Shown: positions 31,701-33,004, numbered from the stretch's first letter. The stretch is DNA of 64,000 nt from Deltaproteobacteria bacterium (GCA_011526585.1 WYBB01000082.1:21294-85293), one strand, 5' to 3'. The notes: generated by a model not told the origin, from the sequence alone. Translations and numbers: made by a program.

Positions 31701-33004
31701 CCGAGACGCACGCTCGCCTGGATCTCGCCCGAGGTGACCTTGAAGTCCTCGCTGACCTCGACCACCGCGCGGTTCAGGCGCAGGTAGGTGTAGGGCGAGT
31801 CGATCTCGCGGAAGTTGATGGTGACGCGGCCGGCGCCCTGCCCGTCCGGCAGCCGGATCTTGATCTTGTGGCCGGCGAGCTTGAACTCGATGATCTCGCC
31901 GTTGCCGGTCTTGGGCTCGGCCTCGGGGCGCGTCGCGTCGGCCTCGTGCTCGTCGAGCGGCTCGGGGCAGGCGTCCTTGCACTCGCCCTCGTCCTCCTCC
32001 GGCTCGGGCGCGGGCGGAGCGGGCTCGGGCTCGGGAGGGGTCGGCTCGGGACCGCCACCGCCGCCGCCGCCACCACCGCCACCGCCGCCACCGCCGCCGC
32101 CACCACCGCCGCCGCCGCCGCCGCCACCGCCACCGCCACCGCCACCGCCACCGCCGCCGTTCTTCTCCTCGGCCATCTCGCGGGGACCGCAGGCGGCTTC
32201 GGCTTCAGGGGACAGGCCGGCGATGCCGGGGGTGGGCAGGCCGCCCTCGAGCACCTTGCTCATCGAGGCGGAGGCCTCCTTCTCGGCCGCCTCGACCGCG
32301 CCGCGCCCGCGCTCGGCCTGGGCGACGTGGGTGAGCTCGTGCGCGAGCAGGGCCTGGTCGTCGCGCCGCTCGGGCGCGAAGTCGCTCGGCAGGTAGACGG
32401 TCTCTTCGGCGAAGAGCGCGAGCGCGTCGCCGTGCTGGTCGAGGCGCTCGTCGGCCACCTCGTCGGCGTGGATGACGATGCGCTCGGCGGTGATGCCCAG
32501 CGCAGCGCCGAAGCGTTGCGTCAAGGCGCGGATCTCATCGGCGCGCACGCGGTCGTCGTCGAAGATCGCCGCGAGCTTCTTCTCGGCCTGCTCCATGCCG
32601 ACCGGCAATCCCAGAAGGCGCGCGACCTGGTCGAGCAAGGGCCCGGCGATCTCGCGCCATGGCCCCGACGAAGGAGCGGGCGCCTGGTCGTAGGCGTCGG
32701 CGCGGACCTCGTCGATCAACGAAGCGGCCGTGACCTCGGCCTCCTCGCCCGAGAGGCCACCGACGAGCTGCATGAAACGCTCGGGCGAGAGCGACGCAAG
32801 GGCCTCCTCGAGCGCATGGTCGATCTCGTCACCGCTGAGCTCACCCGCCTCCAGAGCCTCGCGCGCGCGCTCCTCGACCAGGGCCGCGGGCGACTCGCCG
32901 TGCACGGCCTCGAGCAGGCTCTCGACGAGGCGACGGCGCTCGTCCCCGCGGGAGTCCCGTTGTGCTCGTGAGATTGCTTCGCGATTCTTCAAAAAGGCGA
33001 CCAT
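25757..33004 (-). CDS. giant 2415-aa multidomain protein: DUF4157-like HExxH domain, poly-Gly, Pro/Glu linker, ~16 beta-type modules, C-terminal hydrophobic hairpin and terminal domain
   Basis: Single uninterrupted ORF with realistic composition throughout. LFAEETVYLPSDFAPERRDDQALLAHELTHVAQ (aa 197-229) matches the DUF4157 signature. See findings for details. Confidence 0.85.
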   Translation of the reverse strand: MVAFLKNREAISRAQRDSRGDERRRLVESLLEAVHGESPAALVEERAREALEAGELSGDEIDHALEEALASLSPERFMQLVGGLSGEEAEVTAASLIDEVRADAYDQAPAPSSGPWREIAGPLLDQVARLLGLPVGMEQAEKKLAAIFDDDRVRADEIRALTQRFGAALGITAERIVIHADEVADERLDQHGDALALFAEETVYLPSDFAPERRDDQALLAHELTHVAQAERGRGAVEAAEKEASASMSKVLEGGLPTPGIAGLSPEAEAACGPREMAEEKNGGGGGGGGGGGGGGGGGGGGGGGGGGGGGGGGGGGGPEPTPPEPEPAPPAPEPEEDEGECKDACPEPLDEHEADATRPEAEPKTGNGEIIEFKLAGHKIKIRLPDGQGAGRVTINFREIDSPYTYLRLNRAVVEVSEDFKVTSGEIQASVRLGEFVNAESVTLSVNDRGEISTSIRGAQLQVGDKIRGTLDLDVYNDGIAGECIIRSDAINIAPGLSVSDGYLRVKVSKGGAIFAHGMLKVQVGDFVEVSIDACFVDGEFRGHMVAEWTEPFEIAPHVIVERIMLEGCYRKDNWYVAGEIQLGIAEKWGATIRGKYKRTGQTGTWSVEGEVEQREDINFGELRLHSGSAHVKCTDGTFEPATIHQEMQWRTVVGSVDGSYDIEEGKFNARGEAHLEAPFPLGETGASFTDGQIEAVVENNELTIIEGSVTLQLPYQGQPTFELTATDACYKVKENRFDCTGGARVMRDVVFGDEAGFHAVMAAESSGGFVVEDGKLMSLNGNLGFTVKKGSHEIGTGQVELRYGDDTGLDGSATFTLTNRTGIPDIELGPFYLLQNGTFKVEVKKGKLANASVTDVEWEFCQPDGPGKVGGVVNGSYDFDTGNATLSGTVAVKEDWPLAAGEWGSLQLDKGGHGEISATHEGLKSLSGELSFTANFNGFGGGEPFTVHGVVNGRLNPENYKVTGFAQATLEDPIEVPLGETGHKVIITAGSTIKGEVVDNEPTIFSGSLGLEFVHKTMGPLLAGRIEDCVFDAKNGEVSFHGELELLCELEAVLGETGYSLVVMPHVTMLTCDVAKNKLEHIGGSLVLELRNGQTPIMEGRLENADYDVEKEKFSGDISATLITTLSYPQRGENRLPPSVAISLIAGSTITGRVEENSLTEATVDLQMKLAVHGKEIAEANLDGTWDLVKDEVSGTGEAHLIEDLRLGGQAEGGGEAREPTGWALYVKKDSGVSIELSKNALVQVQIDVGLSAKRGADEMAKGDIHGLYKFGDDAAFSGTAHFEVVKAIDLGPVGRFVAKIDLGTECDATVANSALTAVSGKIVLGAYEGQDKYIDLTLQAEWNGKFTGSAECKVLKPIKLGEGTLNGKRFTTWLQDGTGARVDVVEDAPTTINGAVAIDVAMEDKVFARGRFQIDANLSDEESQVNAEGSIDIVDTLELGSLGAFSFKLLPGTGISGKITANKLEYIQGQLLVGIATEQDGDCGELTLQGRWEGGAEPRFDGTASAKITKSMHLGFGAFGYEFGLDPSQITIVMQNGEITSASGQIVFFAEQIGPDEETPLGTLRVRFQGEYTKAPGAAEGNFSGSGTCDVEGELNVGSTPDYKLIVTGGSGIGIDVENNEFTRLHGALNARVEQLNPKPGETVAFLEVSCEVNYVPKDGGQVDVNGSVMITGKKQLLKIDKYEFWLIPAPDGGGTGATVKIEKNEVIEVGGTVSCAVFDGHEDPLIVANAAGKWVKATGLFDGSGDIRLGRDVTFPEDADGAKLVFKKGSGGGGVVVASEIRQLTGDLDVVIHDDVGELVHCKASGEYNAVTNKIVHAEGSAEIMRPIEIGGTGDNAFIRVTKLAGSATVRNSELIAVSGELEFELPRMPGCGGSFSGGWTNASGEDVYWGTGHLDVAMFVDEEKGRGLTGSLTATFNKDGTWNIVGSADYKITPDIGGSVNVQMDQNIDPIIGATFSITNKKLMDARELFAKKLDILPSVTIPVFTGVNLVFGASAGVKLSLRDLLFSTTIGISNWRPLAEGGSNVPDFDADMSILWGLDLQAQLGGYAALTAGIPGLQAGIGAEGIVTLNVPVTVNPTGHLHGGADGFYGDLGISVTIAPTLDLTIKPMAMAEAGPFKYKSDWPGLTYGLGELWKWEWGTNYRFGDQNQATTGAPGETTASSGNKSVQDSATMDPRNIPEREASAPAEKPGRPKVEGDPGKEKEEEGGGPMEEFSKKMEEIGILGKALGALGKLFGYLVGCLTALAVAGPIGLVIYLIIEMVFGDLSWSGLVQAVEDIIAAMPIIIKYLKPYLPDWLVALIEFASGDEPDLLGALFGADDKVRDEVDAGTHRDLPPEGRAKFINIMMDGYCGDADEDRILVILRYSEGKGDLRSVVNQVDGQGDQIVWKLDGRQDTEVCELFDKNGIDY
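32051..32158 (-). repeat. 108-bp (GGY)36 tract encoding 36 consecutive glycines
   Basis: All 36 in-frame triplets are GCC or ACC on the plus strand, which is GGC/GGT on the coding strand. Confidence 0.95.

Follow-up and report, generated by a model that had tools for sequence, protein, structure and literature searches.

Proteins with a DUF4157 domain mark the toxins of extracellular contractile injection systems (eCIS), and the domain often stands before a very long linker (Geller et al. 2021, PMC8213781). Of the known eCIS toxins, 88% are encoded within ten genes of eCIS (PMC11297309). In AlgoCIS, DUF4157 is dispensable for loading, and a disordered N-terminal region is needed (bioRxiv 10.64898/2026.05.27.728243). 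Another described system is Tme of Streptomyces davawensis (BN159_7576), a 2247-amino-acid, DUF4157-headed, tape-measure-related effector that is loaded in a contractile injection system (CIS) (PMC11126660). Here we describe a giant DUF4157 protein of 2415 amino acids encoded in a 64,000-nucleotide stretch from a Deltaproteobacteria bacterium (GCA_011526585.1, WYBB01000082.1:21294-85293; the whole stretch is hereafter called the window). Directly after its head module lies a run of 36 uninterrupted glycines, G36. As judged from its sequence, the host protein is of the type associated with eCIS. The tract represents no new kind of system but an extreme case of two known classes of element, the low-complexity interdomain linker and the coding microsatellite. 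We regard it, with moderate confidence, as a slippage-prone, glycine-selected and length-constrained flexible spacer at the junction of head and body. The features on which the analysis draws, in positions of the window, are as follows.

25757-33004, minus strand: the 2415-amino-acid open reading frame (ORF), with an N-terminal region, DUF4157 head, low-complexity linker, large body, hydrophobic stretch and small C-terminal region.
32306-32524, minus strand: DUF4157 (eCIS_core, PF13699), residues 161-233, with a score of 42.7 bits (cut-off 22; E 6.6e-11).
32327-32341, minus strand: HELTH, residues 222-226.
32282-32284, minus strand: Glu241.
32174-32194, minus strand: ACGPREM, residues 271-277, which closes the head module and is identical in three orthologous lineages.
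32159-32173, minus strand: AEEKN, the five residues between ACGPREM and the tract.
32051-32158, minus strand: the (GGY)36 tract, Gly283-Gly318, with 23 GGC and 13 GGT codons and no GGR.
31982-32050, minus strand: the Pro/Glu-rich second half of the linker, PEPTPPEPEPAPPAPEPEEDEGE, residues 319-341 (23 amino acids).
31958-31981, minus strand: CKDACPEP, residues 342-349, the conserved start of the body.
24714-25757, minus strand: a 347-amino-acid gene whose ATG overlaps the stop of the giant gene, with no Pfam or NCBIfam match.
34071-34556, plus strand: a 162-amino-acid sigma-70 region-4-like neighbour (PF04545).

With the eCIS DUF4157 effectors Cgo1 and Cgo2 of AlgoCIS, the window protein shares a putatively non-globular N-terminal region, an HExxH domain, a linker and a large C-terminal part. 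They also have in common that no Sec signal is evident, and the genome of the window carries eCIS sheath, tube and terminator genes. The window protein differs in being twice the size of Cgo2 and in the place of its gene, which is separated from the eCIS genes by ~31 kb that include nuo and tig-clpPX-lon. It differs again in a linker that opens with a pure G36; in 150 representative relatives of the head module, no Gly run exceeds 7. With Tme it shares a very long ORF, an N-terminal DUF4157, hydrophobic segments and a small C-terminal domain. However, tme-like genes are partly defined by synteny inside the CIS cluster, and the window gene is 31 kb outside it. The cluster here holds its own 1866-amino-acid Ala/Gly-rich ORF, and no tape-measure or nuclease homology was detected in the window protein.

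The original prediction, a model's reading of the window, had reported 36 uninterrupted GGC or GGT codons for residues 283-318, and re-reading the sequence and its codons gave exactly this. At 32051-32158, the plus strand is (RCC)36 and the minus strand (GGY)36, and all 36 of the 36 codons encode Gly within the 2415-amino-acid minus-strand frame. That frame has a G+C content of 0.95 at third codon positions (GC3) and 0.44 at second positions (GC2). A plus-strand poly-Pro ORF (30977-32971) was rejected by frame statistics, by the Pfam match and by orthologue homology across the tract. Because PF13699 upstream of the tract and homology downstream of it fall in one minus frame with this GC3, the poly-Pro reading is a wobble-matched shadow frame. 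Given 12.4% Gly in the remainder of the protein, the probability of such a run by chance is ~10^-32.6.

Codon use in the tract differs from that of the rest of the gene. GGT is over-represented ~6-fold (13/36 codons vs 17/296 elsewhere in the gene; Fisher p 1.1e-6), and GGR is absent (p 0.024). The longest perfect period-3 run is 20 nucleotides and the longest period-6 run is 35 nucleotides. The predicted mRNA hairpin has a stability of -64.4 kcal/mol, compared with -78.6 without the GGT codons, which thus interrupt perfect repeats and make the predicted hairpin weaker. The order of the codons was unexceptional, with 11% of same-codon permutations equally or more stable than the real one. The G-quadruplex potential raised by the original prediction is only formal. 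The G-runs of the tract are all GG doublets, allowing two tetrads at most, and ViennaRNA gave the same G-quadruplex term (-162) for the real tract and for pure (GGC)36, in competition with the hairpin of -64.4 kcal/mol.

Glycine runs also stand at this site in two orthologous lineages. P0002 (2430 amino acids) is 72% identical to the window protein and the L167 lineage 67%, and these two are 80% identical to each other. At the same site, the linker of P0002 reads ACGPREMAERKDKKTP-G9-TPGNQTDP-G8-TPGNETDP-G8-TTPTPPEP...CLDACPEP, and that of L167 reads G8-PQTDPNHDPSNP-G8-NPDNPNDP-G6. Between the two, the Gly runs are kept and the spacers are wholly different. The span from first to last Gly is 36 amino acids in the window, 41 in P0002 and 42 in L167. 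It is 25 in P0009, a near-identical variant in the P0002 cluster that lacks exactly one 16-amino-acid unit (G8-TPGNQTDP). P0002-type linker DNA is present on four metagenome contigs, and GGT makes up 16/29 of the Gly codons of the P0002 linker, compared with 13% gene-wide. The Pro/Glu half of the linker is partly conserved in the orthologues (TPTPPEPAPP). The surroundings are shared as well: upstream of L167 there are an 84% match to the sigma-like gene of the window and a 67% match to its 221-amino-acid ORF, and a 351-amino-acid homologue of the 347-amino-acid gene directly follows P0002 on its contigs. The original prediction had taken homologues without a comparable linker as the sign of a recent neutral expansion; both of the orthologues found carry comparable Gly-run linkers, so that this objection fails. 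A word-based homologue search that included the tract was swamped by Gly words (8000 candidates, 2 matches), and a head-only query gave 4 matches.

Distant relatives with the CGP...CxxCPxP frame have low-complexity linkers of ~40-55 amino acids, Pro/Asp/Val-rich in G002 and Lys/Pro-rich in G003. In another subfamily of distant relatives the linker is only ~20 amino acids, and in paralogues an OmpA-like domain has been inserted together with a second DUF4157. At L033 (G005:C1:630000-634000), the giant paralogue of a same-family relative carries G10 and G9 ahead of its second DUF4157 domain, within a linker rich in Thr/Pro/Gln, so that linkers of this protein family have gained Gly runs repeatedly.

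The composition of the tract speaks to selection. If C-to-T changes at the 36 third positions gave the 13 GGT codons, we would expect matching transitions on the other strand, at 72 G positions, to have given many Ser or Asp codons. There are zero Ser or Asp codons in the window tract and in the partial alleles of related strains described below. A tract of GGY only, together with runs kept in three lineages, points to purifying selection for Gly and for a span of ~40 residues. This argument would hold even if slippage had copied some of the GGT units, with only few independent events behind them. In the mechanism that we propose, replication slippage would keep rewriting the DNA of the tract, hence the differences even between near-identical strains, and selection would hold the residues at Gly and the span at ~36-42 amino acids. 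The original prediction of a triplet microsatellite that changes in frame is supported by the 36/36 GGY codons, by 5' patterns that differ between strains and by the loss of a 16-amino-acid unit in the sister lineage.

On the protein side, G36 would be the glycine-only first part of a ~60-residue low-complexity spacer, made up of G36 and the 23 Pro/Glu-rich residues. The spacer would join a charged N-terminal region and the DUF4157 head (to ACGPREM) with a body of ~2070 residues (from CxxxCPEP), acting as an unstructured tether without side chains that mechanically uncouples the two. The head itself is well defined. An alignment of 17 DUF4157 segments shows no variation at H222, E223, H226 or E241, and an HExxH with a Glu 15 residues on is, at the level of sequence, consistent with a gluzincin-type site. 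AlphaFold2 modelled residues 120-282 from a 17-sequence alignment with a mean predicted local distance difference test (pLDDT) of 81.7 and a predicted template modelling score of 0.75, confident to ~residue 273. The zincin-like head named in the original prediction thus agrees with both the invariant residues and the confident fold. Residues 274-282 (PREMAEEKN) of the same model fall below a pLDDT of 50, and this fall just before the tract, together with the conserved motifs that bracket the linker, supports the position of the spacer at a domain boundary. A Foldseek search of the head model against the PDB found nothing significant; the best match (E 0.24) was a zinc metalloprotease. In a low-confidence AlphaFold2 model of the linker region from a 3-sequence alignment, the tract had a pLDDT of 33-38 and no secondary structure. 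The "extreme flexible tether" of the original prediction is plausible.

After the linker, C342, C346 and PEP are invariant across the three lineages, and the corresponding motif is CEACPEPD in G002 and CPQGCPDPD in G003. The motif that closes the head takes the form CGP[RKQ]xM in giant paralogues and relatives. The variable linker is thus bracketed by Cys motifs, CGP[RKQ]xM before and CxxxCP[ED]P after, also in L025, L027-L029 and L032-L036. The head model shows a short strand immediately ahead of the Cys (AAC). It is conceivable that these motifs have a role involving metal or a disulfide, for example a cysteine-switch-like contact with HExxH. AACGP was also considered as a lipobox and rejected, as it lies at residue 272 and has Glu at position -3. 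Further along, a hydrophobic stretch lies near the C-terminus (~residues 2230-2270), and homologues of 2300-6800 amino acids were found in the same order. Beyond PF13699, neither Pfam nor NCBIfam gave a match in the 2415-amino-acid protein, and no recognised toxin domain was found. A self-BLASTP of the body showed no internal repeats at E 1e-3. The only sequence relatives in the PDB were engineered Gly linkers and the polyglycine stretch of chloroplast Toc75. Like the tract, Toc75 and the engineered (Gly4Ser)n linkers place a long unstructured segment, made up wholly or largely of Gly, between parts that have a function. They have no homology to the protein outside the Gly run, and the Toc75 stretch lies in a targeting sequence, not at a junction of head and body.

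To what extent the tract is correctly assembled bears on its length. The genome that carries it is in 279 contigs with 6.4% contamination. All k-mers of at least 30 nucleotides in the tract and its flanks (+/-60 nucleotides) are unique, and the 31-mers of the tract occur nowhere else in the genome, so that the tract could be assembled along a linear graph path. The GGC/GGT pattern across it is aperiodic. An exact match to the 162-amino-acid sigma-like neighbour was found in 14 Logan contigs from ~10 sequencing runs, and six of these contigs aligned to the window at 97-99.5% identity. Runs in which the locus is present are SRR10807626 (with a contig 100% identical), SRR22392802, SRR23814901, SRR23814903, SRR27710303 to SRR27710306 and SRR34943919. 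Exact look-ups with P0001, with the 221-amino-acid neighbour and with a 169-amino-acid start variant of the sigma-like gene found no match. The contigs that reach the giant gene all terminate within the tract: L170 at 32157, L171 at 32120, L172 at 32139 and L173 at 32130, and L174-L176 stop 29-33 nucleotides inside it. From the other side, L178 begins within the tract and is 100% identical over 24283-32093, confirming the last 14 codons (43 nucleotides). L173 confirms the first ~29 nucleotides. With these two exact matches, the existence of the tract and both of its ends are independently supported.

The same contigs revealed strain variation. At the 5' end, the window and L173 share one allele (allele A), AAC GGC GGC (GGT GGC)n, and L171, L172 and L174-L176, from two run series, carry another (allele B), AAC (GGT GGC)3 GGC GGT GGC GGC GGT GGC GGC. 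The allele is decoupled from the identity of the flanks, in that L173 (97%) has allele A, and L171 and L172 (99.2-99.5%) have allele B. The partial alleles are GGY only, and the variation seen is synonymous throughout. Another assembly breaks at poly-Gly as well: P0040 ends in G7 where the relative L033 has G10, just as L170-L176 and L178 break in the tract of this locus. Since short-read assemblies repeatedly end in such tracts, long Gly runs are probably under-counted in protein databases.

How rare is the run? Across the whole 6.94-Mb genome (71.6% GC), G36 was the longest single-residue run in coding-like frames, followed by P16 and G11. In the remaining 15 DUF4157 ORFs, the Gly runs that follow the domain reach only G4-G5. 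In 185,579 species genomes, the pattern (GGN)30 matched at least 120 stretches. Among the first 80 loci listed, roughly half consisted of mononucleotide poly-G, in most cases at the end of a contig, and ~37 were true triplet tracts, for which the longest spanning ORF was mostly in an opposite-strand poly-Pro frame, as in a 1518-amino-acid ORF with P34. Convincing cases of poly-Gly as long as this are therefore very rare, in line with the original prediction, and the count is a floor only. Among the loci seen, L069, L053, L098, L070, L086, L121 and L073 have (GGN)n tracts that are mostly poly-proline in long opposite-strand ORFs, and one opposite-strand ORF of 865 amino acids carries P47 and P61. 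Poly-Pro runs of such length (P34, P47, P61) are surprising, given ribosome stalling on proline runs. In L101, a contig of a Metamycoplasmataceae metagenome-assembled genome with 46% GC, hundreds of perfect GGAGGC units form arrays of 190 and 230 triplets; this is probably no gene but a satellite, or else an artefact of assembly or contamination. With coding microsatellites in general the tract shares polymorphism in sequence between close strains, to which the sister lineage adds a difference in unit number. It differs from them in that 36 uninterrupted units is extreme, and in that most comparable (GGN)n tracts among the matches listed are apparently poly-Pro on the opposite strand. PolyX tracts in phage tape-measure proteins (PMC13585406) share with it small-residue homorepeats that arise by slippage and in-frame tuning of length.

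The neighbourhood of the gene is mostly housekeeping: nuoLMN, tig-clpP-clpX-lon, a PrkA kinase, a MoaD-MoaE fusion and trp genes. The 347-amino-acid gene accompanies the giant gene in the P0002 lineage too. On the full contig, the giant gene is at C32:47053-54297, and ~31 kb upstream of it, at C32:10150-16170, come those for sheath, tube and Pvc16_N. With these housekeeping genes intervening, the gene falls outside the range of ~ten genes from the operon that is typical of eCIS cargo. The order of its parts fits such cargo, with an N-terminal region, DUF4157 and then a large C-terminal part without a recognised toxin domain. The stretch C32:2274-16287, ~5-19 kb before the window, holds a Pvc16_N terminator, two sheath-type genes and two tube genes, a partial contractile-injection set. 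It also holds the 1866-amino-acid ORF, which is Ala/Gly/Arg-rich (possibly tape-measure-like), and, judged by eye from the sequence, LysM and gpD/VgrG-like ORFs. No baseplate genes were seen in this stretch.

In total, the genome has 16 DUF4157 matches. At C104:36280-49098, a 794-amino-acid ORF with a pair of AAA+ domains is followed immediately, in the same orientation, by a 3758-amino-acid paralogue that contains DUF4157 twice and an OmpA-like insert. On C95, a further DUF4157 gene adjoins a 703-amino-acid double-AAA+ ORF. These DUF4157/AAA+ neighbours on C104 and C95 look like cargo-loader pairs away from structural genes. Among the neighbours of the giant gene in the window, no adjoining AAA+ loader was found. 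Across 41 relatives, Pvc16_N was present in 15/18 genomes with strong giant homologues and in 16/23 others, which was not discriminating.

Several observations weigh against a selected flexible spacer of fixed length. The middle ~36 nucleotides, and hence the exact length of 36, come from this assembly alone, and all other assemblies of the locus break within the tract, which could reflect heterogeneity or low coverage. The 3-sequence linker model was weak throughout (mean pLDDT 40.7) and so cannot prove disorder. Long polyglycine in water tends to collapse or aggregate, unlike an ideal random coil, so that a flexible tether may be too simple a description. Distant relatives lack Gly runs, and glycine may thus be unneeded for the basic spacer function. 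The span of 25 amino acids in P0009 is at odds with a strictly constrained length, unless the assembly collapsed there. Some of these points would suit a neutral history, in which a short Gly-rich linker was blown up by slippage in one lineage with no function beyond harmlessness. The uninterrupted G36 is confined to the window lineage, Gly runs are absent from the distant relatives that share the frame, the tract varies among near-identical strains, and low-complexity linkers after DUF4157 are generally unconstrained. Yet three lineages, as little as 67% identical, have retained Gly runs although the spacers were replaced, the 13 synonymous GGT codons are accompanied by zero non-Gly codons where G-to-A changes at 72 G positions would probably have given Ser or Asp, and the span is steady at 36-42 amino acids, which makes neutrality unlikely in our view. 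An assembly problem, with a real tract whose length or middle was collapsed, expanded or made chimeric between strains, appears more doubtful again. The number of contigs and the contamination of the genome, the Logan contigs from ~10 runs that all stop within the tract from both sides, the presence of at least two alleles among related samples, and breaks at poly-Gly elsewhere (P0040 ending in G7) would all be expected from it. Against it stand the unique k-mers of at least 30 nucleotides with a linear graph path, an aperiodic GGC/GGT pattern that is not an assembler's invention, and the exact match of the first 29 and last 43 nucleotides to independent contigs.

The remaining alternatives give the run a specific activity. 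One is that polyglycine, offering no grip, could make the eCIS loader ATPase, ClpXP or Lon slip, so that unfolding or degradation would go no further than the head and the giant body would be spared. PolyG tracts do cause slipping of substrates in ClpX (PMC9531181), and eCIS cargo is loaded through an N-terminal disordered region, with DUF4157 right after it, by a probably unfolding AAA+ ATPase (bioRxiv 10.64898/2026.05.27.728243). Sheath, tube and Pvc16_N genes are on the same contig, two other DUF4157 genes, one of them for the 3758-amino-acid paralogue, have double-AAA+ ORFs as neighbours, and the identity of the residues looks selected. But the ClpX effect occurs only when polyG abuts a folded domain (PMC9531181), and here at least 23 non-Gly residues come before the body. 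The paralogue that adjoins an AAA+ ORF has no Gly run, no AAA+ loader is next to the giant gene, and at ~31 kb from the eCIS genes it is outside the ten-gene range of 88% of toxins (PMC11297309); loading of the giant protein would itself be an assumption. We therefore hold this reading to be very improbable. A variant of it, in which the Gly runs are a selected stop device where the loader loses traction, only the head is threaded or removed, the 2000-residue body is spared and slippage tunes the device between strains, is a long shot, marginally less remote. A processing site, cut in or near the Gly run by the HExxH head or another peptidase so as to free the body, seems slightly harder to credit than either. 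For it, there is an intact catalytic-type HExxH+E 57 residues upstream of the tract, and specialised endopeptidases exist that cut Gly-Gly bonds. The possible roles of DUF4157 named by Geller et al. include "release, maturation" (PMC8213781). However, growth inhibition by Cgo1 was independent of the DUF4157 metalloprotease motifs, as cited in PMC11297309, and DUF4157 was dispensable for loading in AlgoCIS (bioRxiv 10.64898/2026.05.27.728243). In relatives that share the head, the linker lacks Gly runs, and Foldseek found no significant peptidase match (best E 0.24). Least credible of all is an ordered polyglycine-II structure, with three G8-9 runs or a folded-back G36 packing as left-handed helices within or between chains, on the model of the snow-flea antifreeze protein and the glycine-rich domains of ALK and phage fibres. 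The orthologues do share with polyglycine-II domains (ALK/LTK PF12810, PF21722, the snow-flea protein) runs of 6-9 Gly, a typical length for such helices, three in number and separated by short turn-like spacers of 8-12 amino acids rich in Pro/Asp/Asn/Thr, and their overall span is conserved. Against this, PF21722, PF12810 and any Gly-rich fold family gave no match at E <=10 in the three lineages, no beta-sandwich flanks the runs, of which there are only 2-3, and the tract had no secondary structure in the weak 3-sequence model (pLDDT 33-38). The spacers are gone in the window lineage and P0009 has two runs only, which is hard to square with a fixed fold.

We thus return to the flexible spacer kept at glycine by selection as the reading that we prefer, and the tract is most simply an extreme but ordinary low-complexity linker. 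For annotation, the locus illustrates that long (GGN)n tracts break short-read assemblies, and because such tracts are mostly opposite-strand poly-proline in other genomes, flanking homology must fix the frame. DUF4157-headed proteins are the main cargo marker for phage-tail-like injection systems, and this one protein offers a natural series of linkers: G36, three G8 runs with spacers, two G8 runs and, in distant relatives, Pro-rich linkers. The series could be used to ask if linker chemistry affects loading, processing and stability.

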